A stretch of 64,000 nt of DNA from an uncultured Candidatus Saccharibacteria bacterium (lineage in GTDB: Bacteria > Patescibacteriota > Minisyncoccia > Phycocordibacterales > UBA2100). Both the position numbers and the translations under genes were made by a program. The notes under the pieces are model-generated. The model was not told the origin of the DNA. It ran no database searches and saw only the letters and a program-made list of their open reading frames with translations. Shown piece after piece: positions 6,243-52,094 of the stretch. The stretch is from positions 67,675 to 131,674 of the forward strand of contig CAZPQI010000001.1 in assembly GCA_964589005.1 (NCBI GenBank). The letters run 5' to 3'. The first letter of the stretch is position 1; each line of letters starts with the position of its first letter.

Positions 6243-6791
6243 CTACTGGCTAATTTCTATTTCTTTTTTCTTAAATAATTCTTCTAGCGAACTATTTCCT
6301 GTATCAATATGTTTTTGTAGTTCGTCTTTAGCGCCAAATTTTTCGTCTTCGCTCATGTCTCCTGCTTTTTCTTTTGCTTGAATATCTCCCCACGAATCTT
6401 CGCGTGCACCGCGCAAACTTTGGCGTGCGTCTTCCAATTTGTCTTTAGCAATTTTTATAAGCGAGTCGCGGCGCTCGGACGTAAGCTCAGGAAACGAAAT
6501 TCTAATCCCTTTGTCATCAACACCCACCCCAACACCAAAATTTGCGTCGTTAATTGCTTTCTCAATTTCTTTTATTTGCGAAGTGTCCCACGGAACAATG
6601 CGTAGCGTTCGTGCGTCCTCAACACCAATATTTGCCACTTGATTAAGGGGCATCCGTGAACCGTAGCTATCTACTTGAATTGAATCCAGTAGCGTTGGTG
6701 TTGCGCGCCCCGTGCGAAGTCCCTGATACTCTTTACGCAGCCATTCTTCCCCTTCAGTAATTTTTAACTGCAATTCTTTGAAATCGTACAT
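6243..6791 (-). CDS. frr: ribosome recycling factor
   Basis: 182 aa of typical Frr sequence (LRTGRATPTLLD..., VPWDTSQIKEIEKAI). Confidence 0.95.
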   Translation of the reverse strand: MYDFKELQLKITEGEEWLRKEYQGLRTGRATPTLLDSIQVDSYGSRMPLNQVANIGVEDARTLRIVPWDTSQIKEIEKAINDANFGVGVGVDDKGIRISFPELTSERRDSLIKIAKDKLEDARQSLRGAREDSWGDIQAKEKAGDMSEDEKFGAKDELQKHIDTGNSSLEELFKKKEIEISQ

Positions 6792-16654: not shown

Positions 16655-16774
16655 TACTTTCTATTATATCACGTTGAAAAAACACTTTTCTCGTGTAGAA
16701 TACGGCTCAGTTCTTTCCAAAGTTATATAGATTTTTTCGCTCCGCGGTAGCTCAGTGGTAGAGCAATCGACTGT

Positions 16775-17026
16775 CGAAGGCAGCCTTTGGTAGTAATATC
16801 AAAGTGAAGAACGAGGTGAATTGACTGGAAACCCTAACGTAAAGGCGAGGGCAATCAGCAGCCAAGCTTAATTGAAGGTTCAGAGACTATTCCGAAAGGA
16901 AGTACTATCCATTGTAATTATTTTGCAACTGGACGGGAAGCGCCTCGCATCCTAATCCGATCACGTCAGTGATTTAGGATGGATGATGATATAGTCCACC
17001 CCTTTTGGAAACAATTGGAAAAGGTG
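16775..17026 (+). mobile_element. putative group I intron (approx 252 nt) in the tRNA-Asn anticodon loop
   Basis: The 5' exon ends in U and the intron ends in G. An internal guide GCAG can pair with exon CUGU to form P1. GGAAACCCUAACG, CCAAGCUU and AGAGACUA match elements I recall from small bacterial tRNA group I introns of the Azoarcus tRNA-Ile / cyanobacterial tRNA-Leu type. A GACGGG...AUAGUCC P7-like pairing is present. The size fits that class. Confidence 0.6.
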
Positions 17027-17102: not shown

Positions 17103-17435
17103 ATGTCTACCACTAAGAAACGAAAAGAAAAACGTACGTACGCCGATCGTCGTGAGTACATGATAAAGGCAGTCGCTAAACGACGCAGAAAGTTACGAAC
17201 TATGGCTTTAGAGCATGGAGGTGGTAAGTGTACGATTTGTGGGTATAAGAAATGCACTAGAGCGCTCACTTTTCATCACCTGGATCCATCTAAGAAAAAG
17301 TTCGGATTATCTGCCAGAGGGATAACTCGCTCATGGGAAAAAACTAAAGCAGAGTTAGAAAAATGTGTTTTGCTATGTATGAACTGCCACATGGAAATAC
17401 ATGATGGAGTTACTAAAGTTCCAAAGAAAAGGTAA
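17103..17435 (+). CDS. HNH endonuclease
   Basis: 110 aa with CxxC...HHLDP...N...CxxCH, a His-Me finger. Lies immediately 3' of the intron-containing tRNA, bracketed by duplicated tRNA 3'-end sequence. Confidence 0.8.
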   Translation: MSTTKKRKEKRTYADRREYMIKAVAKRRRKLRTMALEHGGGKCTICGYKKCTRALTFHHLDPSKKKFGLSARGITRSWEKTKAELEKCVLLCMNCHMEIHDGVTKVPKKR

Positions 17436-24333: not shown

Positions 24334-24383
24334 AATGAAGAATCTTAGACTCAAAGTGCTATACTAAACGAACAATTGAATAA

Positions 24384-24526
24384 ATTATCAAGAAAGATGT
24401 GAAGGGACTAGCCTTATGACCATCTTAGCAACCTGTCTCTTCGTCCAGATAAGGTGCTCCATCTAGCCTGTATAGGAAAGATAACAATGCATCAGCATCT
24501 TACCCTTCACAGGAAAGATGTTTTTT
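24384..24526 (+). promoter_or_regulatory. SAM-I (S-box) riboswitch with terminator in the metK leader
   Basis: UUAUCAAGAAAGAUGUGAAGGGACUAGCC...GCAACC...AGAUAAGGUGCUCC...AUCUAGCC...GGAAAGAUAA matches the SAM-I consensus blocks (YUCUUAUCAAGAG..GGAGGGACUGGCC...GCAACC...AAGGUGCUAA..CCAGC..GAUAAGA). It is followed by the hairpin catctt...aagatg plus TTTTTT just before the metK start. Confidence 0.8.
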
Positions 24527-42333: not shown

Positions 42334-43497
42334 TTACGAGTTTGCCACGGCACCAGAAACCGCTTCCACTATCCCCTCGTCAAATGGTTCAGGAATTATT
42401 TTTTCTGCTGTTGGCTCTTTAACAAGTGCTGCGAGGGCTTCAGCTGCTTTAATTTTCATATCGTCGGTAATTTGCGAAACTCCTGAATCAAATGCTCCTT
42501 TAAATATTCCAGGGAATACTAATGAATTGTTTATCTGATTTGGTTGATCCGAACGGCCCGTGGCTACTACTGTAGCTCCCGCATTTCTTGCAACATCTGG
42601 ATCAATTTCAGGCACAGGATTCGCAAGTGCAAAGATTATTGGTTCTGAATTCATAGTCGCAACCATTTCTTTCGTTAAAATATTCGGTGCTGAAACCCCT
42701 ATAAATACATCCTTACCAACTACGGCTTCCTCTAACCCGCCACAAATTTCGCTAATAGCACAACATTCCAGTATCTTTTTCTGAGACACATCTAAGTCTT
42801 CGCGACACTTTGAAACAATACCTCCTCCGTCAACAATAGTTACTCGAGGAAAACCGTACTTCTGCAATAGCGAAACTATCGCAATACCTGCCGCCCCAGA
42901 ACCAGTAACAACAATTTTCAAATCATCTTTAATCTTCCCAGTAACCTTAAGTGCATTAATGAGTCCTGCCAAAACTACAATAGCGGTGCCGTGTTGGTCG
43001 TCGTGAAATACAGGGATATCGAGTTCTGCTTTTAATCTTTCCTCAATTTCAAAACACCGTGGTGCAGAAATATCTTCAAGATTAATACCACCAAATGTAG
43101 GAGCAATATTCTTAATCGTCTCTACTATTTCGTCAACATCTTGTGTGGCAAGAGCTATAGGAAAAGCATCCACACCAGCAAAGGTTTTAAACAGTGCACA
43201 TTTGCCCTCCATAACTGGTAACGCCGCTTCTGGGCCAATATTGCCCAAGCCAAGCACTGCTGAGCCATCTGTGATGACAGCCACCATCTTTTTAGTCGCG
43301 ACTAAATCGCGTGCTCGTTCAGGATTTTTGGCAATCAATTCTGAAACTGCTGCCACGCCTGGCGTATAGGCGATTGAAAGCTCCTCTTTGTTTGTAACGG
43401 GGAATATACTTTCAATGCGAATCTTTCCACCCTTTTCTTCGTGCTGCCTGATTGATTCCTCTCCGTAATTCATTCGGGCAAGTATATCACGCAGCAT
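42334..43497 (-). CDS. NAD(P)-dependent malic enzyme (short form)
   Basis: YTPGVA, the GSGAAGIAI Rossmann motif, and ALANPVPEI. Confidence 0.9.
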   Translation of the reverse strand: MLRDILARMNYGEESIRQHEEKGGKIRIESIFPVTNKEELSIAYTPGVAAVSELIAKNPERARDLVATKKMVAVITDGSAVLGLGNIGPEAALPVMEGKCALFKTFAGVDAFPIALATQDVDEIVETIKNIAPTFGGINLEDISAPRCFEIEERLKAELDIPVFHDDQHGTAIVVLAGLINALKVTGKIKDDLKIVVTGSGAAGIAIVSLLQKYGFPRVTIVDGGGIVSKCREDLDVSQKKILECCAISEICGGLEEAVVGKDVFIGVSAPNILTKEMVATMNSEPIIFALANPVPEIDPDVARNAGATVVATGRSDQPNQINNSLVFPGIFKGAFDSGVSQITDDMKIKAAEALAALVKEPTAEKIIPEPFDEGIVEAVSGAVANS

Positions 43498-43589
43498 TAT
43501 ACAGCACAGCCTTTGCAGAAAGGTGCTCTTAGTGATAAAATCGCTCGGTACATTTATCCGTTACTAGCTTAATAAAGGACAGGGAACTT

Positions 43590-44015
43590 ATGAATACCGA
43601 AGTAGCACAAGAAAAACAATACGACGTCGAACGAATCGAAACACCGCTCGACATTGCACGTGGAAATTTCGAGAAATGGAACGAAGCTCTGCAGAGCAAA
43701 GATCCAGCTATTGTGTCCGCACTTTATACAGAAAGTGCATCATTTCTTCCCACTATGGAGGTGACAAAAAGTGGTCGTGCTGAAGCGGAACAATATTTTG
43801 TTCATTTTCTTGACAAATTACCACTTGGTACTATTACAGAAGATACCGTGCAGCAAATAACCAACGATACTATCGTCCACTCAGGCCTTTATGACTTTGA
43901 ACTTGGTCCAGAAAATAACCGAAGTATCGCACATGCTCGCTTTACGTTTGTTTGGACACAAATAGACGGTTCGTGGAAAATCTTACACCACCATTCGTCT
44001 GTTGTTCCACAGTAG
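43590..44015 (+). CDS. NTF2-like/SnoaL-like (DUF4440-type) protein
   Basis: 141 aa. The pattern (ALYTESASFLPT...WKILHHHSS) fits the NTF2-like fold. Confidence 0.45.
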   Translation: MNTEVAQEKQYDVERIETPLDIARGNFEKWNEALQSKDPAIVSALYTESASFLPTMEVTKSGRAEAEQYFVHFLDKLPLGTITEDTVQQITNDTIVHSGLYDFELGPENNRSIAHARFTFVWTQIDGSWKILHHHSSVVPQ

Positions 44016-44078
44016 GAGCCTAACGAAATAATGTTGTACAAAAACCCTTGCTTAAGTGCGAGGGTTTTTATATTAAGA

Positions 44079-44699
44079 TTAAACAATTTCTTTTTCCTCA
44101 GGTTTCAGTTCTCTCAATTTTTGGTCTTCTTGGTACAGTTTGTAAAGTTCATTCATTGCTCGTTGTATCATTTCTTCATCATACGCATCGAAAAATTTCT
44201 CAAGCCTATGCACGAGTCTACGGACGCTATCGGCTATTAACCCCTCTATATTTTCTTCTAACTTCTCTCCAAGCACATCCTCTCTTCCAAAGGATCTCTC
44301 CATTTTTATATACAAATCATCGATATTTTCAAGTTCTCGGATCGCCTGAGCAATCAGAATATTTTCTTCAGAACTGAGTTCCTTAGACTCATACGTTTCG
44401 CTCCTTGCTACGGCACTAATTTTTCTCATGCGTGCTGAAAGTGCATTAATTTCCTGAAGTAATTTTTTTGCAGCCTCTGTGTCAAGACGGGGGACTATTG
44501 GTTTTTCTGGAAATAAATCTTTCACAAAGCCAGTACTGTAATGAGCTTGGCTCTCATTTGGACTCGTTGAAATACTTGCTTGAGCATTACCTTCTGGAAC
44601 AGCAAGTGCTCCAAAAAGTGCTGTGGCAAATATAGCCGCCTTTTTCCCGTTGACCTTTTTACCTTTTTCCGGATTTTCGTTACCAATTTTTTCGATCAT
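44079..44699 (-). CDS. hypothetical secreted coiled-coil protein
   Basis: Signal-peptide-like N-terminus (KKAAIFATALFGALAVP) followed by an E/K-rich coiled coil. Confidence 0.4.
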   Translation of the reverse strand: MIEKIGNENPEKGKKVNGKKAAIFATALFGALAVPEGNAQASISTSPNESQAHYSTGFVKDLFPEKPIVPRLDTEAAKKLLQEINALSARMRKISAVARSETYESKELSSEENILIAQAIRELENIDDLYIKMERSFGREDVLGEKLEENIEGLIADSVRRLVHRLEKFFDAYDEEMIQRAMNELYKLYQEDQKLRELKPEEKEIV

Positions 44700-44740
44700 A
44701 TTAAAAATTATCGCCTAACTCGTATCGAAAGTATACCAGA

Positions 44741-45682
44741 TCATAAATTAGAGGAACGATTCAATATAACTAAAAGTGCCATCCTAACCCATAAACCATT
44801 TTGAGCTTGCTCGAAGTGGCGTGCGTGCGAGTCGTTGTCCACCTCCACTGCCATTTCATCCACTCTCGGCAATGGATGCATAATAATTGCATCGTCCTTC
44901 ATTTGTTCAGCTAACTTTTTTGTTAATACATATTTTCCTTGAGCTTTTTCGTATTCTTCTTCACTCCCAAAGCGCTCCTTTTGTATTCGAGTCATATAGA
45001 GTACGTCTACTTTTTTAATGACTTCCTCAATCGTCTGCAGTTCCATATATGGAACTGCATTCTCTTTTAAATGTTCTTTCAGACTCTCCTTAAGCGAGCA
45101 GCTCTTTGGAGCAACAAAGCTAAAAGAATTTCCTGTGAATTTGGCAAGAATATACACCATCGAATCACACGTGCGCCCGTTGAGTAAATCGCCCACTCCT
45201 GCGATATGTAAGTTCTCGAGCGTTCCATGCTCGCGCCAAATGGTGTACACGTCAAGAAGCCCCTGCGTTGGATGCTGGCTACGCCCCGAGCCTGCGTTTA
45301 TCAATGGAACAGAAACTGTGGAGAGTGCTTTTATAGATGCGTCATCTTCGTGATGTCGCATAATAATCATATCGCTGTACATCGAAATAATACGAATAGT
45401 ATCTTCAATAGTTTCTCCTTTAGATACTGAAGAAGAACCTCGGGCGTTTTCAGTGGAAATTATAGAGCCACCCAGGCGAGCTATTGCAGACTCGAACGAA
45501 AGGCGCGTGCGAGTTGAGGGTTCATAAAAAAGCGTGGCAACTACTTTGCCACGCAATTCATTTTGGTATTCCTGAGGATTTGTCCGAATATCGTCAGTAA
45601 GAGCAAATAATTCCGCTAGAAACTCCGGCGTAAATTGCTGCGCGAGTATAGTGTGTGTATACGGACTCGGGTACGTACCCAT
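44741..45682 (-). CDS. pyrB: aspartate carbamoyltransferase catalytic subunit
   Basis: Motifs STRTRLSFE, HPTQ and HPLPR. The start is taken at the internal Met (MGTYPSPY). Confidence 0.95.
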   Translation of the reverse strand: MGTYPSPYTHTILAQQFTPEFLAELFALTDDIRTNPQEYQNELRGKVVATLFYEPSTRTRLSFESAIARLGGSIISTENARGSSSVSKGETIEDTIRIISMYSDMIIMRHHEDDASIKALSTVSVPLINAGSGRSQHPTQGLLDVYTIWREHGTLENLHIAGVGDLLNGRTCDSMVYILAKFTGNSFSFVAPKSCSLKESLKEHLKENAVPYMELQTIEEVIKKVDVLYMTRIQKERFGSEEEYEKAQGKYVLTKKLAEQMKDDAIIMHPLPRVDEMAVEVDNDSHARHFEQAQNGLWVRMALLVILNRSSNL

Positions 45683-45783
45683 TAAAACTAAATGGTAACA
45701 TTGGGACTCACAAACCACAAATATTGTAAAAATAAATTACCCTCATTAGCTTGCTCTAGAGTAGTTTATTACTACGTAGTTAT

Positions 45784-46791
45784 CTACGTATTTAAATGCT
45801 GAGAAAAAGGGTGTATGCATTCTTTTAACTCATAAGCATCCCCATGTCCTAGTAAACCTAAGTACGATTGCAAAGTCTCTTGCTTTCCATCAGTTTCAGC
45901 AACCCTCTTTAACATCCTGCGTTTTGTTACACTGCGTAGCACACGATGGTTAGGAAAATGTACCCAACCTAAAAAATCTATCCCAGAAGCAAGTGTCTCA
46001 ACAGAAGTCTTTCGTTGATGTAATTCGAGCTGTAGTTTAACTTGTAAAAACCTTTCGATATATCGAAAGGTTTTTACAGGAACATTCCTATCGTGTGAAA
46101 GAAACATGAAATCGTCAGCATAACGAATATAGTATTTTGCTTTCAGTTTGTGCTTAACAAACTGGTCAAACTCATTCATATATATATTAACAAAAAGTTG
46201 CGAAGTGAGGTTACCAAGCGGTAATCCTTTTCCTTTCACCCCGGAGTTGAAGCTCCCCATAATTTCTGCCAAAAGTGCAATACTATCTTTGTCAGCGATA
46301 TGTTTCTTCAAAATATCCATTAAGATACTATGGTCAATAGAGGCAAAGAACTTTCGTATGTCGCTTTTAAATACCCATACTGTTTTCGTGTTGTTTTTGG
46401 AAACTTTGTTTGAAAAACTACGAAAACGATTCACCGCTTTGTGTGTTCCCTTATTACTTCTACAAGAATATGAGTCAGCGATGAACGTGTTGTCAAAATA
46501 TGGATAGAGTTGTCTATATAATGCGTGGTGAAGCAAGCGATCACGGACACTTGCCTTGTGAATATTTCTTGGCTTCGGGTCGGAAATATTAAAGGCTTCG
46601 TATTTGCCATGCTTGTATATTTTGTTTTTTAAATCTTGGTGTAATGAAAGTATGTTATCCATTAGATGTAATTGGAATTCCTGCACATCTTTTCGTTTTC
46701 TTTTACCATTGAGAAATTCCTTCCACGCACCAAGAAGATTTTCTACTGAGATGATATCATTGTATGTATGAGAAAATCTCAACATCAGCAT
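45784..46791 (-). CDS. reverse transcriptase, DGR-type
   Basis: YIRYADDFMF is the YADD catalytic motif. GLPLGNLTSQLFVNIYMNEFD carries the DGR-specific [I/L]GxxxSQ motif 4. The N-terminus is FENLLGAWKEFLNGKRKRKDV. No maturase/X or En domain, 336 aa. The start is at ATG (MLMLRF); the tracked ORF uses an upstream TTG through a G10 run. Confidence 0.9.
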   Translation of the reverse strand: MLMLRFSHTYNDIISVENLLGAWKEFLNGKRKRKDVQEFQLHLMDNILSLHQDLKNKIYKHGKYEAFNISDPKPRNIHKASVRDRLLHHALYRQLYPYFDNTFIADSYSCRSNKGTHKAVNRFRSFSNKVSKNNTKTVWVFKSDIRKFFASIDHSILMDILKKHIADKDSIALLAEIMGSFNSGVKGKGLPLGNLTSQLFVNIYMNEFDQFVKHKLKAKYYIRYADDFMFLSHDRNVPVKTFRYIERFLQVKLQLELHQRKTSVETLASGIDFLGWVHFPNHRVLRSVTKRRMLKRVAETDGKQETLQSYLGLLGHGDAYELKECIHPFSQHLNT

Positions 46792-46798
46792 AATACTA

Positions 46799-46808
46799 CC
46801 CCCCCCCC
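46799..46808. repeat. C10/G10 homopolymer in the 35-bp gap between the RT and avd start codons
   Basis: Read from the sequence. This is the only long G/C homopolymer noticed in the window. Confidence 0.8.
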
Positions 46809-46826
46809 GCAACTACTCAACCTAAG

Positions 46827-47180
46827 TTGATACCAGTGGTTTTAAGATTGAAGGATGTGTACGGTATATGGCAAGCATATCTTATACACTTCCCGAAACA
46901 AAATCGCTATACTCTTGGCTCAAAAATTGACGAAGTATTCTTGCTCGCTATAGAATATTGTTTCCTAGCTAGTTACGCCCCAAAAGATACTAAAATTATT
47001 CACCTCAACCGCTGTATATCGCGAGTTGACCTTCTTAAGTTACTTTTACAATTATCTTGGGAAATACAAGCACTGGACACTAAAAAATATACGGTACTTA
47101 GTGAACAACTACAGGAAGTAGGCAGAATGCTTGGCGGGTGGAGAAAGGGGTTGGAAGTTAAAAACTCCCCACAAAAGTGA
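46827..47180 (+). CDS. avd: Avd-like accessory variability determinant (four-helix-bundle, 23S rRNA-IVS protein family)
   Basis: 117 aa. YGIWQAYLIHFPKQNRYTLG..., the central LLKLLLQLSWEI, and the C-terminal EVGRMLGGWRKG line up with Bordetella bAvd (EVGRILGSWIARVNRKG). Initiates at TTG. It is encoded on the strand opposite to the RT, TR and target. Confidence 0.7.
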   Translation: MIPVVLRLKDVYGIWQAYLIHFPKQNRYTLGSKIDEVFLLAIEYCFLASYAPKDTKIIHLNRCISRVDLLKLLLQLSWEIQALDTKKYTVLSEQLQEVGRMLGGWRKGLEVKNSPQK

Positions 47181-47193
47181 GGAGAAAATGATG

Positions 47194-47309
47194 TGTTGCT
47201 TGACCACCAAGCGATGGCGAGAGTCCGCATTCCAGACGTTGTCATTGTCAAAGCGGTTCACGTTGACCTTGAGCTTACCAGCATTCACATTGACGTTAGC
47301 GACAAACAG
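47194..47309 (-). repeat. DGR template repeat (TR)
   Basis: The minus-strand reading frame is LFVANVNVNAGKLKVNVNRFDNDNVWNADSRHRLVVKQ, with 8 AAC/AAT codons. It is 100% identical to the VR except at 10 adenines. Confidence 0.85.
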
Positions 47310-47638
47310 AGACGATATGTGAAGTGTGCCATCCATACCACCAACATTTGATAGCGAATTAACAAATATTTGTATTTTATGCGAGACCTAAAAGTCTTCA
47401 GAGAACACCTCACCAACAAACTATTTTTTTAAAAGAAATAACGTAACCATGCTCCAATCAGTCGTAACTTTATGAACTCTAAACTACGTCTTCCTACACA
47501 CAAACTTCCAAAGCCGTGACCGTTGAAATATTATCTGTGGCTTCCTTAGTATACAAAAGAAATCCCTCGGGCGCCCATAAAAAATGAGAGCGTCCGAGGG
47601 ACTAAGGTTCAAAGGGTCAAAGACCAAAGTGCAAAGAA

Positions 47639-48295
47639 TCAAACAGTCTGTTGCTTGACCACCAAGCGATGGCGAGAGTCCGCACGCCAGACGTAGCCAT
47701 AGTCAAAGCGGTCCACGTAGACCTTGAGCTTACCAGCACTCACATCGACGTAAGCGACAAACAGTTCATCATTTACTTCAAACAAAAAGAAGGTGCCATA
47801 TCCTTCTTGCCGGAGCAAGTCGCGATGCGAGCGGCAAAACTCTTTTATCTGTCCCTGGGTGAGACAGAACTTGTGTGGGTCGCCGAGTGAGCTAAACAGC
47901 GTTTGATAGTTACCGTCGTGTGTCATTTCGTACACGTCAACGGCTGTTTTTTCGGTGTCTTCGCCGGGGACGTTCGTGCTCCAGTTTTTGAAGTCACTGT
48001 CAACCCATCCGTTGAAGACGTCGTTGGCTTTAGCGAGTGTGACCGCGCCCTTCGCGAAAGCGATGGTGGTACTTTCAAGATAATGGAGGTAATCGTTGTC
48101 CTTGGTAGGGGCGATGGCCTCTAAAAATGCCTCGATACCACATTCCATTGCTTCGGCTCCAGCCTGAGTGCCAAGACGATGAATCGCCTCATCACTTATT
48201 CCGTGTTCACGGAGTCCGTTGATAACCCCACCTGCAAACTGAACGAGCCAACCTGCACCAGAGATAATCTCGTGTGGTTTATTTTTGCTAGACAT
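47639..48295 (-). CDS. DGR target protein (218 aa) with C-terminal variable region
   Basis: No signal peptide (MSSKNKPHEIISGAG...). The last 41 residues (LFVAYVDVSAGKLKVYVDRFDYGYVWRADSRHRLVVKQQTV) are encoded by the VR. Confidence 0.8.
   Translation of the reverse strand: MSSKNKPHEIISGAGWLVQFAGGVINGLREHGISDEAIHRLGTQAGAEAMECGIEAFLEAIAPTKDNDYLHYLESTTIAFAKGAVTLAKANDVFNGWVDSDFKNWSTNVPGEDTEKTAVDVYEMTHDGNYQTLFSSLGDPHKFCLTQGQIKEFCRSHRDLLRQEGYGTFFLFEVNDELFVAYVDVSAGKLKVYVDRFDYGYVWRADSRHRLVVKQQTV
47649..47764 (-). repeat. DGR variable repeat (VR)
   Basis: Aligned to the TR, the substitutions are N>Y, N>D, N>S, N>Y, N>D, N>Y, D>G, N>Y and N>R (the last being 2 nt). Every changed nucleotide is A in the TR. 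Confidence 0.85.
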
Positions 48296-48615
48296 TTTAG
48301 TCCTTCCTATGGTTCAAATCTCATTCAGAACGTGTGTCCCAAACCTCATTCTCACCAATTTAAGTTGAAAAATACTACGCCACAATGGTCATAGCTACAA
48401 ATCACCTAAACTTAGGTACCTTGTAGCTATAACCAACAAAATCTCTTATGTAAAGAACTATGCGTATACTATACCACATTTTATAGAGTACGCAAGTTCG
48501 CAAGTCCTGAAAGACAGGTAGAAATACACAGGATGCACAAAAAAACTGTTTCGTAGTTACGTAGCGAATCCAGTGTTGGGTATACTGTATGAAGCTTCAA
48601 ATTCATACTAGATCA

Positions 48616-48641
48616 AAGTGTATCGGTTAACCGATACACTT
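48616..48641. repeat. 26-bp perfect palindrome aagtgtatcggttaaccgatacactt (copy 2 of 2), flanked by a 7-bp direct repeat actagat
   Basis: Identical to 6864-6889. actagat lies at 48607-48613 and at 48646-48652. Confidence 0.85.
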
Positions 48642-48669
48642 ATGCACTAGATTTTAAGATTAATTTTAG

Positions 48670-48707
48670 AAATAATACCGCACTTGTTAATAAGTGCGGT
48701 ATTATTT
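48670..48707. repeat. 38-bp near-perfect AT-rich palindrome (aaataataccgcactt gttaat aagtgcggtattattt)
   Basis: 15-bp arms. Lies directly after palindrome copy 2, mirroring the arrangement at 6864-6944. Confidence 0.75.
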
Positions 48708-48779
48708 AAGCTAGCAGCTCCAAGCTCACGACTACTTTCCCAAGGCGAGCAAGAGTGCTGCTAGTTCGAGGAGTATAAG

Positions 48780-48827
48780 AAAACTACTTCGAGATGTACG
48801 TCTTTGGTACTTCTCGAAGTAGTTTTT
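48780..48827. terminator. rpoD terminator: 15-bp-stem hairpin (aaaactacttcgaga...tctcgaagtagtttt) flanked by A and T runs
   Basis: Lies 40 bp downstream of the rpoD stop on the minus strand. Symmetric, so it could act bidirectionally. Confidence 0.7.
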
Positions 48828-48867
48828 GTAAATGCGACAAAGAAATAGTAGTGCTGTTGCTCGCCGA

Positions 48868-50148
48868 CTAGTAGTTTTTCAACTGAGCAGCCCTCTCGTG
48901 TAATCGTATTTTCTCAAGCGACTTTGCTTCAATTTGTCGGATACGTTCGCGCGTAACACCAAACATCTTTCCAACTTCTTCAAGTGTGTGGCAAATCCCC
49001 TCTTCGTTGAGGCCGTTACGCATTTCCAGAATTTTTCGTTCTTTATCTGAAAGTTCTTCAAGTACTGCAGTAATATGCTCTGAAAGAATACGACGACTCG
49101 CGGATTGGTCGGGGGACTCCATTCTATCGTCGGCAATAAAGTGCCCAAGTGTTGACTTGTCTTCGCCTTCATCACCCACTGGTGATTCCAAACTAATAGT
49201 TGCTTGGCTAATTTTCTGAATATGGTGAATTTTCTCAACATCTAAGTCCATTTCTACCGCGACTTCTTCTGGCATTGGGTCTCGCCCTAAGTGTTGCGAA
49301 AGCTCGCGCACTCGCTGTTTATACTTTGCGATTGTTTCCACCATGTGCACAGGAATACGAATCGTGCGCGACTGGTCGGCAAGTGCACGAGTAATAGCTT
49401 GGCGAATCCACCATGTTGCGTATGTTGAGAATTTATATCCTTTTGTGTAATCAAATTTATCAACTGCCTTAAACAGACCAAGGTTTCCTTCTTGAATAAG
49501 GTCGAGTAACGTAAGGTCGCTTGAACGTCCTACATACTTTTTGGCAATCGAGACTACAAGACGCAAGTTCGAACGAGCTAAAATACCGCGCGCCTCATCG
49601 TCGCCAACCTCAATACGCTTTGCGAGCTCTTTTTCCATATCAGCATTAATAAGTGGGTATTGACCAATTTCGCGCAAGTACATTTGTACTGAGTCGCGAG
49701 ACGCATCCGACCCTGAGCCAAACTTTTTCTTATCAAGAATAGTTTCGGTGTTATTTTCTAGAAGACCACCACTTTCGAGCACATCAATCCTCGCTGCTGC
49801 GAAACGTTCGTACAGTTCCTCAAGAAATACAATATCCTGCTCGATAGCGGGAAACTCTTTAAGAATCTCATCGTATGTAACATACCCGCGTTCGTGTCCT
49901 TTTTTCAATAGCTTTTCCGCTTGACGTTCCTTTTTTGACGCCCCTTTCTTTGGTGGTGTACGTTTTGGAGTAATTTTTTTAATCGCAGCTTTAACAACGG
50001 GTACAACCTTAGAAACAGCGGGTTTCTTCGTGATTTTCCTTACCGCTTTTTTTACTGACGTTTTTTTAGCAACCTTTTTGGTCACTGCTTTCTTCTTTAC
50101 TACTGCCTTTCTAGGGGCAATTTTCTTTGTGGTCTTCTTTTTGGCCAT
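48868..50148 (-). CDS. rpoD: RNA polymerase sigma-70 factor RpoD with Lys/Ala-rich N-terminal tail
   Basis: Regions 1.2 to 4 are all present ([21 protein letters not shown], the [14 protein letters not shown] -10 recognition motif and the 4.2 [21 protein letters not shown]). The N-terminal roughly 75 aa is about 35% Lys ([27 protein letters not shown]...). Confidence 0.95.
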
Positions 50149-50396
50149 ATATTTTAATTTCTAAACCTGTTCCCATATAATAATCTTCGCCTATTACGCT
50201 TAGTTCTGGCTACAACTTGCTTCGTAAACCTCACCAATACGGTGTATTGATTCAACTTGCTCAACTTCGTTTCGCTCAAAACGCCACGTAATATACTTCG
50301 AAGATTAAACGTGAACAGGTCTTACTTTATAGTGTTTTAAATAAAATTCAACTGTTTTGCTCCACTTGGACCTCCGACTTCCAAGTTGGCGTTATC

Positions 50397-52094
50397 TTAT
50401 AAATTTGCGAGCTTTATATGTAACTCTTGGCACTTCAGTGCCATTTCCTCTATTTTTTTTGCATTCCCCTCGCTTTCTGCTTTTTTAAGTTCTGCACTAG
50501 CTATTTCCAACTCTTTTCTAACTCCTCCATTTATTAAGCGCTCGAGTAAATCATTAATTGCGCTCCTTGTTGCGTCTTCTGTTGTATATAACAATTCGAA
50601 TCGGAACGCTGCTTCTGTATCACCTATTAATCTTTCTTCATGTGCTTTAAAACCAATTGGCGTAAGTGCATCTTCTATCTGTTTTTTAAATCTTTTAACA
50701 TCAACAAATGGTTCGCTAAGACTTTTTTGCCATAGGTACATTAACATCAACTCGTTTTCTACATTACGTACCTTCTCCATACGTTTTTCTTTATCACCCC
50801 CATTAGTAACTCCAGCATTTAATGGTGTCGCTTTTATTTTGGAAAGCTCTTGTCGTACCGCTTCTTCTTTTACTGCCAACTGAGCAGCAACTTTTTGAAT
50901 AAAGTGACTCTTGTCTATTTCGCTCGCAATGTCGTGTAAATATGGCAACACCTCTTTGGTTACGATAAGTTTAAATGCGCGGTCGTCTTTTGCATGCTCG
51001 CGATAATATTCTAGAAGAAACTCTACAACATGTTTAGAATCTTTTATCGCCTTCTTCCAATTATCTACGTCGCCTCTTCCAAGCATATCCGACGGATCCT
51101 CTCCTTCTGGCAAGGCAACTATCTTTACATCAAACCCGGCGCGCAGCGCAGCGCGAGCCGACTTCCCTGCACTTGCGATGCCTGCCTCATCTGAATCCAG
51201 TGCTAAGCAAAGATTATTCGACATTCGCCCCAGTAACACAATATGCTCGGGGGTCAGTGCAGTGCCCGAAAGCGCCACGGTGTTTGTATATTTCGCTTGA
51301 TGTGTCGCTAGCAAATCCATTTGACCTTCAACTAACACTGCAAAATTTGTTTTACGAATAGCCTGTCGTGCCCTATCGTAGCCGTATAAAATTTTCGATT
51401 TATGATACAGCGCAGTTTCAGGAGAATTTATATATTTCCCAGTGTTGTCGTCTTCTTTATCGAATATCCTTCCTGAGAACGCCACCACACGCCCTACACT
51501 ATCAGTAATGGGAAACATAATCCGTGAGCGAAAACGATCATAAAAGCCTTTATCTCCCTTTTTTATCAACCCCGCATCTTCAATATGCTTCTCACTAAAT
51601 CCAGCTGCCCTAAGATGGTCCAGTGCACCACTCCACCCATCGGGCGCAAATCCAACACGAAAAGATTCAATAGTTTCTTTAGTCAGACCGCGATCGGTTA
51701 AGTACTTGATCGCCTTTTTATTTTTCTTTAGGTTGTCTACATAATACGCAGTTACCGATTCAAGAATAGAAAACAAAGTATCTTTGTCGTCTTTCTGAAC
51801 TCCTTTGTCGAATGTTAACTCTACTCCAGATTTATCGGCGAGCATTTTAAGTGCACCTCTAAAATCAAGCCCCTCGATTTCTTGCACAAAAGTGAAAATG
51901 TCGCCGCCCACACCGCAACCAAAGCAGTGATACGTATCTCGCATAGGTGACACAATAAACGACGGGGTCTTTTCTGCGTGGAACGGGCACTTACCCTTCA
52001 GGTTACTCCCCGCTGCTTTAAGTTCAACGTACTGCCCTACCACTTCCTCGATAGAAAGCCGTTCTTTTATATTTTCTACATTTCCTATAGCCAT
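50397..52094 (-). CDS. dnaG: DNA primase
   Basis: CPFHAEKTPSF zinc ribbon, RNA-polymerase domain and TOPRIM (EGQMDLL, ALDSDEAG) motifs. Confidence 0.95.
   Translation of the reverse strand: MAIGNVENIKERLSIEEVVGQYVELKAAGSNLKGKCPFHAEKTPSFIVSPMRDTYHCFGCGVGGDIFTFVQEIEGLDFRGALKMLADKSGVELTFDKGVQKDDKDTLFSILESVTAYYVDNLKKNKKAIKYLTDRGLTKETIESFRVGFAPDGWSGALDHLRAAGFSEKHIEDAGLIKKGDKGFYDRFRSRIMFPITDSVGRVVAFSGRIFDKEDDNTGKYINSPETALYHKSKILYGYDRARQAIRKTNFAVLVEGQMDLLATHQAKYTNTVALSGTALTPEHIVLLGRMSNNLCLALDSDEAGIASAGKSARAALRAGFDVKIVALPEGEDPSDMLGRGDVDNWKKAIKDSKHVVEFLLEYYREHAKDDRAFKLIVTKEVLPYLHDIASEIDKSHFIQKVAAQLAVKEEAVRQELSKIKATPLNAGVTNGGDKEKRMEKVRNVENELMLMYLWQKSLSEPFVDVKRFKKQIEDALTPIGFKAHEERLIGDTEAAFRFELLYTTEDATRSAINDLLERLINGGVRKELEIASAELKKAESEGNAKKIEEMALKCQELHIKLANL

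Follow-up and report, generated by a model that had tools for sequence, protein, structure and literature searches.

A structurally complete diversity-generating retroelement of the Patescibacteria B3 type, with a candidate structured leader RNA upstream of its template repeat

Between positions 45784 and 48295 of the 64,000-nucleotide stretch of Candidatus Saccharibacteria DNA analysed here (contig CAZPQI010000001.1; the whole stretch is called the window below), a reverse transcriptase (RT) gene and an avd-like gene lie beside two near-identical repeats, one of which forms the end of a protein-coding gene. A first-pass annotation had read this as a complete diversity-generating retroelement (DGR) with adenine-specific differences between its template repeat (TR) and its variable repeat (VR). 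The locus raises the question of whether it is a genuine DGR and, if it is, to which class it belongs and how the RNA that carries its template is built. Our answer to the first part is that it is almost certainly a genuine and complete DGR, because all of the defining components are present and intact (RT, Avd, a TR/VR pair and a VR within an open reading frame, ORF) and because the adenine-specific TR/VR pattern lies far beyond chance; in this the annotation is borne out. Read on the minus strand, the gene order is target (with the VR), 339 nt, TR, inverted avd and RT, every element of the cassette being on the minus strand except avd, which is on the plus strand. By analogy with characterised DGRs, the cassette is predicted to rewrite a small protein, itself uncharacterised, at some nine amino-acid positions of its tail.

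The TR (47194-47309) and the VR (47649-47764), both on the minus strand, are each 116 nt long and 91% identical, and a repeat finder reports them, just where the annotation had placed them, as the single long direct repeat in 43000-51000. On re-alignment they differ, as claimed, at ten positions, every one of them an adenine in the TR (A to T four times, A to G five times and A to C once), and there is no mismatch at any other base. Given 29 adenines in 116 nt (the annotation had counted 18), ten mismatches out of ten at adenines corresponds to a hypergeometric p of 2.5e-7, and the VR shows no drift at non-adenine bases along its full 116 nt. When its adenines are masked as N, the TR pattern has just two matches in the 64-kb window, the TR and the VR themselves, with none expected from shuffles. 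The further VRs that the annotation had thought worth looking for were not found in the window, either with this masked pattern or by searching for the invariant 3' block described below.

The VR is in frame, covers 38 codons (178-215 of the target) and ends 8 nt before the stop codon of the 218-aa ORF, closing the protein much as the annotation had it. The TR, which had been described as a run of AAC/AAT codons, in fact holds eight such codons (AAY) among 38, alternating with V, F, W and R scaffold codons; these eight contain, in their first two positions, 16 of the 29 adenines. All eight are altered in the VR (N to Y four times, N to D twice, N to S and N to R once each), and a ninth codon change converts D to G (GAC to GGC), the residues that differ from those encoded by the TR being 182, 184, 186, 193, 195, 199, 200, 201 and 204. 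The changes of N to Y, D, S and R that had been listed are all seen, while the G derives from D. At their 3' ends the TR and VR share an identical block of 36 nt, rather than the 41 bp that had been proposed as the site where mutagenic homing initiates (IMH); its GC content is 58%, and that of its first 14 nt is 71%. Downstream of this block the two diverge over about 10 nt (VR CAGACTGTTTGA, TR CACATCATTTTC). Cases in which the IMH and its TR counterpart, IMH*, are identical are known (Wu et al., PMC5758913).

The RT gene (45784-46791, minus strand) encodes 335 aa from an ATG at 46791, the mechanical ORF extending to a TTG at 46812. Its translation matches RVT_1 of Pfam at 1e-22 and carries LPLGNLTSQ and YADD, as the annotation had noted, so that both the [LIV]GxxxSQ and the YxDD motifs of DGR RTs are present. 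Group II intron RTs carry QGxxxSP where DGR RTs carry [LIV]GxxxSQ. The best solved relative is 8ub7 (E 2e-44), followed by retron-type and group II intron RTs at 5e-21 to 8e-21. We take 8ub7 to be the BPP-1 bRT, given that it is 328 aa long and that its nine entries resemble the nine complexes of Handa et al. There are at least 8,000 relatives of the RT at E below 1e-30; among the 120 matches listed, identities are 63-82% apart from the 100% match of the protein to itself, and those with organism names come nearly all from Patescibacteria. The exact 335-aa protein is present in a public collection as P0069. We also observed that close relatives of the RT are publicly named 'retron-type reverse transcriptase' or 'reverse transcriptase/maturase', and that the public gene calls at the locus (L007, JGI annotation) miss avd altogether, probably because of its TTG start. 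With its RT relatives misnamed and its avd missed, the DGR is not recognisable from public annotation.

The avd gene (46827-47180, plus strand; 117 aa) lies on the strand opposite to the RT, TR and target. Its product scores 50.5 bits against Pfam bAvd (cutoff 40), upholding the Avd-like assignment; HRDC, MSL and CH1 are the alternative accessory proteins of DGRs. Weighing somewhat against this are its score with the NCBIfam model DivGenRetAVD, which at 66.5 bits falls below the cutoff of 80, and the lack of any sequence match to the Avd in the PDB. Orthologues with 42-92% identity occupy the same position in related loci, and the inverted orientation of avd is kept in every related locus that has one.

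We collected 246 relatives of the locus from metagenomes and kept 80 loci, in addition to loci obtained by exact look-ups. In 33 non-redundant TR/VR pairs from this set, 536 of 558 mismatches (96%) fall at TR adenines, the changes being A to G (273), A to T (148) and A to C (115). The TR keeps to one strand throughout and starts 419-486 nt downstream of the VR start; the exception is L058, where the TR, avd and RT precede the target, which lies downstream of the RT. The genomic neighbourhood of the cassette differs from locus to locus: rpoD/pyrB in the window, ligA/gatCA in L008, Prenyltransf/PseudoU_synth in L004.

To which class does the element belong? The architecture 'TR-(avd)-RT', termed B3, accounts for 90% of the DGRs from candidate phyla radiation (CPR) lineages (Wu et al. 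2018, PMC5758913), and DGR clade 2 is restricted to CPR/Patescibacteria, with targets in which transmembrane domains, or any others that can be recognised, are typically missing (Roux et al. 2021, PMC8144416). The window has the TR-(avd)-RT order, an avd on the reverse strand and a Patescibacteria host. It shares with the CPR DGRs the target, TR, inverted avd and RT in identical order and strands, a single adjacent target that is small and without signal peptide, transmembrane segment or known domain, and the host lineage, its RT relatives of 63-82% identity being spread across many Patescibacteria. Nothing essential sets it apart, though the target family and VR motif are not matched to a named class. 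This placement rests on architecture, RT identity and the organism names of the target and RT homologues (Parcubacteria, Nomurabacteria, Kaiserbacteria, Paceibacterota and similar). We hold the account favoured here, a structurally complete DGR of the Patescibacteria (CPR) B3 type, to be very probable as a whole; the parts of its RNA model are graded one by one below. That DGRs are common in CPR lineages, as the annotation had remarked, also holds; the locus is a further example of a class catalogued since 2017, and by itself it changes little.

The target gene (47639-48295, minus strand; 218 aa) belongs to an unannotated family restricted to Patescibacteria. It matches no Pfam or NCBIfam family. 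Searching with the single sequence recovers 68 relatives and searching with a profile 432; those listed are 126-250 aa long (mostly about 190-250), have no Pfam domain, and are all called 'hypothetical protein' (Parcubacteria, Nomurabacteria, Kaiserbacteria, Paceibacterota, Falkowbacteria). The description of this family as effectively undescribed is thus fair, there being 432 members and neither a Pfam domain nor a name among those listed. No bridge to known families emerged from Pfam searches on 34 aligned members, from a PDB profile search or from a profile search of 5.8 billion proteins. The sole match in the genome collection, L001 (Acidobacteriaceae), was rejected: it is a chance RFDYGYVW in an unrelated 936-aa protein with no RT nearby.

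In the family alignment the C-terminal scaffold reads FVAxVxVxxGxLxVxVxRFxxDxVWxAxxRHRLVVxQQ, in which the x positions fall at the AAY codons of the window TR. Column entropy over 34 homologues is 3.0 bits at the eight AAY codons, compared with 1.25 in the remaining 30 codons of the VR (Mann-Whitney p = 4e-5). The AAY-encoded positions are hypervariable across the target family.

The annotation had called for a structure prediction of the target with a C-type-lectin or Ig-like scaffold in view. An AlphaFold2 model built on the family alignment is confident, with a mean pLDDT (predicted local distance difference test) of 87 and about 97 from residue 70 onward. In the model, one strand carries residues 182, 184 and 186 and the next strand residues 193 and 195, while residues 199-204 belong to the loop after it; from these positions the variable side chains would form one face. 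The order of secondary structure elements is beta-alpha-alpha-beta-beta-beta-beta. With this model Foldseek found nothing at E below 0.08 in the PDB or BFVD, and only weak similarity to C-type lectin (CLec) folds. The prediction thus delivered a confident model with a mapped variable face, but only a weak scaffold similarity, and we would describe the variable domain as compact and probably C-type-lectin-like, with the fold assignment itself weak. Like the CLec-fold variable proteins of other DGRs (Mtd, TvpA (2y3c), the archaeal AvpA and TaqVP), the target has a C-terminal VR in which variable residues alternate with conserved hydrophobic scaffold residues. It differs from them in that its domain is very compact (about 100 aa) and has no FGE-sulfatase or DUF1566 signature, and in that most members of its family are without a secretion signal.

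An N-terminal hydrophobic segment is likewise absent from most members of the target family. The subgroup that includes the window protein (P0002-P0005, P0048, P0056) carries an additional stretch at the N terminus, KNKPHE-IISGAGWLVQFAGGVINGL-REHG (48232-48268, residues 10-28), which forms a weakly hydrophobic helix with a mean Kyte-Doolittle value of about 1.3 (calculated by hand) and low pLDDT. From its sequence, this segment could be a membrane anchor, and we note it as a candidate.

The target gene is followed by a terminator-like hairpin (47564-47600, minus strand; CCCTCGG...CCGAGGG, then a T-rich run). Most homologues, DGR-less ones included, have such a hairpin some 28-40 nt behind the stop codon, with the consensus AATCCCTYNG...CNRAGGGATT followed by a T-run, and directly after it comes a conserved TG-TATAAT/TATACT box.

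What lies between this box and the TR? Comparative analysis points to a structured leader RNA on the minus strand. Its 5' half (47430-47559) comprises the promoter-like box TG-TATACT (the -10 hexamer at 47548-47553, conserved in all 29 aligned loci), a hairpin H1 (47505-47528), a long hairpin H2 (47441-47489) and an A-tract. The 3' half (47311-47422) comprises an invariant AGUUGG/GUUGGUG motif and a 12-bp long-range helix H3 (47402-47413 with 47319-47330) that encloses a hairpin H4 (47384-47397) and the conserved AUAAAAUACA. H1 and H2 both show covariation, and 9 of the 12 pairs of H3 carry compensatory changes. The 3' strand of H3 stops about 10 nt before the TR. The elements follow the box in the order H1, H2, A-tract, AGUUGG/GUUGGUG, then H3 with H4 and AUAAAAUACA inside it.

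Over 57 pairs in seven helices, 93% of alignment cells are paired, compared with 38-51% when the partners are slid against one another; 42 pairs show compensatory changes (17-25 in the slid controls), the covariation score is 0.62 (0.11-0.19 in the controls), and none of 500 shuffles reaches the observed values. Two observations tell against the leader as a new structured RNA: the window leader is no more stable than its shuffles (z = -0.4), and, while we did not find it described in the DGR literature searched, an earlier mention is possible. As the window sequence is not unusually stable, the case for structure rests on covariation. Searches with Rfam 15 gave nothing better than E 0.2 in 45600-48500 and nothing in the region at the gathering threshold.

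Covariance models built from the two halves behave as markers of the RT clade. Model R1 (the H3/H4 half) and model R2 (the box/H1/H2 half) each have one match in the 64-kb window, at E 1e-18 and 4e-20 respectively. Both match, in order and directly upstream of the TR, in four loci (L095, 3214-3453; L096, 3312-3555; L097, 3215-3462; L099, 3100-3382) that represent three other, unrelated target/VR types, each with adenine-specific TR/VR differences, and matches directly upstream of the TR are present also in L100, L101 and L105, again with unrelated targets. R1 matches beside RTs of 50-57% identity on IMG/VR contigs and weakly at 46%; beside RTs of 33-34% identity it gave no match. Among 16 DGR-less target homologues searched, 15 have no match to either model, the exception being L014 with a partial R2 remnant. 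On this comparative evidence we are highly confident that the leader is a genuine structured RNA, conserved and linked with the DGR (RT) clade of the window whatever the target, and we put it forward as a candidate new RNA family. In being a structured RNA encoded beside an RT, with template and primer in one molecule (as proposed below for the leader-TR RNA), it resembles the msr-msd RNA of retrons. It differs in that no retron RNA family matches and the RT is of the DGR clade, and in that a DGR product homes into the VR whereas a retron product is kept as msDNA.

On the other side of the TR lies a second conserved structure, the hairpin CTCCTCAC-tttt-GTGGGGAG followed by T5 (47160-47184, minus strand), which starts about 10 nt after the TR, overlaps the avd stop codon on the other strand, and was flagged as terminator-like by our scan. 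A hairpin of at least 7 bp with a T-run follows the TR in 28 of 29 loci, compared with 6% of shuffles, and its inner stem covaries; in relatives the stem is 8-10 bp, often with a tetraloop, 10-16 nt after the TR. These counts were anchored on the stem; in a short MAFFT alignment of this region RNAalifold gave no structure, because the loops differ in length. In L004 the hairpin and the avd stop are about 90 nt apart, so its conservation is no by-product of Avd coding. Of 278 Avd-containing DGRs, CPR included, 207 are reported to have a stem-loop of about 9 bp directly behind the TR (Handa et al., bioRxiv 10.1101/2023.10.23.563531), and by analogy the hairpin is most simply an Avd-binding stem-loop; with a U-run following it, it is probably also the terminator of the TR transcript.

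How the template RNA might be primed is best discussed against BPP-1 (mtd-avd-TR-brt), the mechanistic prototype. Its TR needs 20 nt upstream and a 140-nt downstream spacer (Sp) that contains, in order, an Avd-binding stem-loop, a primer strand ending at A56, a stop-duplex strand, which pairs with sequence just upstream of the TR, and an RT-binding stem-loop (bioRxiv 10.1101/2023.10.23.563531). The window shares with BPP-1 an RT with the SQ motif, Avd, adenine-specific transfer from TR to VR, a VR that lies 3'-terminally in the target, an invariant block, rich in GC, at the VR and TR 3' ends, and a stem-loop directly after the TR. The differences concern layout. The avd of BPP-1 lies upstream of the TR, whereas that of the window is inverted and downstream; about 240 nt of structured leader precede the window TR; and the invariant 3' blocks of the window TR and VR are identical over 36 nt, diverging only in the last ~10 nt. 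The inverted repeat after the window VR is about 38 nt away and, since DGR-less homologues have one too, is primarily a terminator. Lastly, the window TR has no 140-nt non-coding spacer. We did not find a BPP-1-type spacer of about 140 nt downstream of it; a hairpin and U-run are followed there by the convergent avd coding sequence.

Several pairings within the template RNA were considered. A BPP-1-like primer strand antisense to avd was rejected, as an RNAduplex comparison of the TR 3' end with the next 140 nt, a weak test, yielded a mean z of +0.2 in 29 loci. Also rejected was a pairing between the 'RLVV' codons of the TR and the antisense of the 'GGW' codons of Avd, which are complementary in some loci but show no covariation; L022 breaks the pairing, which in L004 would moreover put initiation 5' of positions that are mutagenised. 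Across the alignment, other long-range helices between the leader GUUGGUG and the TR 5' GCCAAC, or TR-internal sites, are complementary, but in near-invariant columns in which no covariation signal is possible. The pairing we favour is between the TR tail AACACATCA (47189-47197, minus strand), which lies between the end of TR/VR homology and the hairpin, and a leader segment just 5' of the invariant GG (47415-47422, or 47415-47429 when delimited more widely; alignment columns 548-556 with 308-316). In the alignment 79% of cells are paired (35-51% with slid partners) and 34 cells are compensatory (7-18), and independent loci show the same pairing with other letters (AAAUAAAGA:UCUUUAUUU in L096, AAAUGAAGA:UUUUCAUUU in L097). 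Over 34 TR/VR pairs, the A-to-N differences end 3-6 nt before the proposed duplex; within and after the duplex, differences between TR and VR fall on A and on other bases alike. As in BPP-1, the candidate primer strand sits immediately 5' of the strand that forms the helix beside the TR 5' end. Against the duplex, it was found by eye in the same sequences that scored it, and it is partly complementarity of an A-tract with a U-tract. Because the partners are A-rich and U-rich, per-locus shuffles in five independent loci give p values of only 0.03-0.33 (Fisher combined about 0.02, calculated by hand). A specific leader:tail priming duplex is therefore a tentative suggestion, and one we would not yet call probable.

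Taken together, these comparisons suggest the following scheme. The template would be a self-contained non-coding RNA of about 380 nt, predicted to run from near 47540 to 47160-47164, that starts at the TATAAT-like box just after the target terminator and consists of the ~240-nt leader (H1, H2, H3/H4), the TR, and the hairpin with its U-run, abutting the convergent avd. As in BPP-1, the TR would be transcribed and RT-Avd would make a cDNA copy of it, misincorporating at random opposite adenines; this copy would replace the VR and so re-randomise some 9-12 residues at the surface, on a loop and two neighbouring beta-strands. The leader would take the role of the BPP-1 spacer, providing RT binding, a stop helix beside the TR 5' end and a primer strand complementary to the TR tail, so that relative to BPP-1 the layout would be permuted, with an Sp-like module upstream of the TR. 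Judging from the comparative sequence data, we consider the chances that the leader is a functional equivalent of Sp to be evenly balanced.

The intergenic region between the divergent avd and RT genes, only 35 nt long, holds a further conserved feature, a C10 homopolymer (46799-46808), which reads as G10 on the strand of the RT. No other G/C run in the 64-kb window reaches 8 nt. At the same position, 21 of 23 related loci have a G run of at least 6 nt, 9-12 nt long in 20 of them (in L004 at 6505-6513), and so do DGRs with other targets: L095 (13 G), L097 (10) and L099 (at least 9). Across 471 kb of sequence from related loci, runs of G or C that reach 8 nt are almost confined to the avd-RT site. 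The tract is not simply a ribosome-binding site, because its distance to the RT start varies among loci. Homopolymeric tracts are classic slipped-strand switches. The contingency tracts of phase-variable genes (for example, in Neisseria and Haemophilus) resemble this one in being G/C runs of 9-13 nt that differ in length, here in a comparison between loci and not within a population, and in lying in a very short divergent intergenic region. By analogy, the G tract may be a slipped-strand on/off switch for the DGR, and we regard it as a candidate for such control of hypermutation; no link between homopolymer tracts and DGRs was found in the literature searched. That the Patescibacteria DGR clade has both an RNA built differently (upstream leader, TR, dual-role hairpin) and a G9-13 tract that acts as an on/off switch is a combination we think quite possible, if somewhat doubtful as a whole. 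Neither leader nor G tract is in Rfam or described in the DGR literature searched.

Not all homologues of the target retain a DGR. We scored 32 distinct homologues whose downstream flank spans 2.6 kb or more: a TR is present in 14 and absent from 18. Among the 18 are L086 (2625-3750), a decaying DGR whose VR has drifted at non-A positions and whose RT is truncated, and L044 (4502-4754), which keeps only a remnant of the leader RNA. Because L086 is decaying and L044 and L014 keep leader remnants, we conclude from these sequences that at least some of the 'orphan' targets arose through DGR loss; the DGR is, it appears, repeatedly lost while the target gene stays.

Homologues with no TR, Avd or RT nearby include L002, L010/L011, L014, L019, L042, L065 and others. 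The Nomurabacteria locus L004, with a DGR, and the DGR-less L010/L011 (P0038) have in common the upstream acylphosphatase, prenyltransferase and pseudouridine synthase genes, as well as a downstream Peptidase_Mx gene; in place of TR-avd-RT, L010/L011 carry a ribosomal protein L19 gene and about 1.1 kb without a called gene. Three IMG/VR contigs of 27-39 kb (L092, L093, L094) carry homologues of the C-terminal domain of the target without RT, Avd, TR or leader, and RTs of the window clade with leader RNA also occur on viral-classified contigs (the L100-L105 group). The IMG/VR contigs L092-L094 and L100-L105 are either Patescibacteria phages or misclassified cellular contigs.

Could the locus nevertheless be something other than a working DGR with a lectin-like target? 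The public names of the RT relatives, and the fact that among NCBIfam models it is one for group II intron RTs that matches the RT best (with a score well short of the cutoff), might suggest an ordinary partial duplication or pseudogene beside an unrelated retron or group II intron RT. The adenine specificity found here and in 96% of the 558 mismatches in relatives effectively refutes this explanation, quite apart from the SQ motif, the adjacent Avd, a closest solved RT (8ub7) that is not a group II intron RT, and the lack of a maturase domain or any Rfam intron or retron RNA in the region. Less easily set aside is the idea that the cassette is a fossil, with parts that look intact but homing stopped in the lineage and the VR a frozen record of past diversification. 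The single other contig that carries this target, L007, is identical over 6549 nt, VR included, and as far as sequence goes current activity is unproven; decay is common in the family (L086, L044 and the rest of the 18 in 32 scored without a TR), and signs of recent activity are found in only 50-75% of DGRs (Roux et al., as summarised in PMC8632793). Yet the RT, Avd, TR, leader, hairpin and G-tract of the window are intact and score as well as in any family member, and its TR/VR differences are purely at adenines, whereas the decaying L086 has accumulated non-A differences; we consider a fossil improbable. As for the target, its variable domain might be a distinct, undescribed DGR scaffold and not a C-type lectin fold. 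The empty Foldseek search and the absence of Pfam, NCBIfam or PDB sequence matches, even with the family profile, would fit this, as would a VR motif (xVxVx-turn-xVxVxRFxxDxVWxA) unlike the three other CPR VR types in L095-L099 and the six CPR VR classes (UVR1-6) that Wu et al. (PMC5758913) left unassigned. But the beta-alpha-alpha-beta-beta-beta-beta order fits CLec topology, and annotated VR regions were systematically CLec in Roux et al. (PMC8144416), which leaves a distinct scaffold rather unlikely.

The remaining alternative concerns the RNA alone. The layout could be BPP-1-like, with a priming spacer downstream of the TR that is read through the hairpin, antisense to avd, the leader then being only a 5' UTR, a promoter or regulatory element, or an unrelated small RNA. 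In BPP-1 all essential elements except 20 nt do lie downstream of the TR (bioRxiv 10.1101/2023.10.23.563531), and for 207 of 278 Avd-containing DGRs, CPR ones among them, Handa et al. predicted stem-loops downstream together with 'stop' duplexes between upstream and downstream sequence; their survey, however, reached only 40 nt to the upstream side of the TR and 100 nt to the downstream side (bioRxiv 10.1101/2023.10.23.563531). The few loci in which the TR 3' end is complementary to the antisense of the Avd GGW codons, and the marginal support for the leader:tail duplex in independent loci, also speak for a downstream spacer. Opposed to it are the conserved, terminator-like U-run after the hairpin, beyond which the RNA is antisense to a coding gene, and the lack of a consistent or covarying duplex between the TR and sequence downstream (mean z 0.2), although the RNAduplex scan behind that figure is a weak test for a downstream primer strand. 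The leader, for its part, strictly co-occurs with the RT clade whatever the target and is lost with the DGR, and H3 adjoins the TR 5' end, where the stop duplex of BPP-1 sits. We judge the BPP-1-like layout unlikely, and prefer the upstream leader as part of the template RNA.

If the leader is the counterpart of Sp, the RNA requirements for cis-primed, adenine-mutagenic reverse transcription would be modular and could be permuted, which, if true, bears on the mechanism and on the engineering of DGRs for directed evolution, where DGR RNA structure limits efficiency. The leader may be a sign that in these lineages, the largest reservoir of DGRs in nature, the DGR RNA has another organisation. 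The target family, with 432 members restricted to Patescibacteria, a hypervariable face at residues 182-204 and a confident model, offers a concrete test case for whether CPR DGR targets are truly not membrane-bound, a point left open by Roux et al.

Several other features of the window were noted. Two near-perfect palindromes lie between the target and rpoD, one at 48386-48435 (24-nt arms, 83% complementary, 2-nt gap) and one at 48780-48826 (20-nt arms, 95% complementary, 7-nt gap); from its sequence, the latter looks like an rpoD terminator or a bidirectional terminator. A group I intron (Rfam RF00028, 77.9 bits) is found at 16725-17018 on the plus strand, followed at 17103-17435 (plus strand) by a 110-aa ORF with HNH-like Cys/His motifs that is probably a homing endonuclease. 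No host gene could be assigned to the intron, as neither a tRNA (ARAGORN) nor an rRNA was detected in the window; new group I intron sites in Patescibacteria tRNA genes have been reported in a 2025 preprint. Finally, a SAM riboswitch (RF00162) scoring 49.7 bits, above the gathering score, lies at 24382-24487 on the plus strand.

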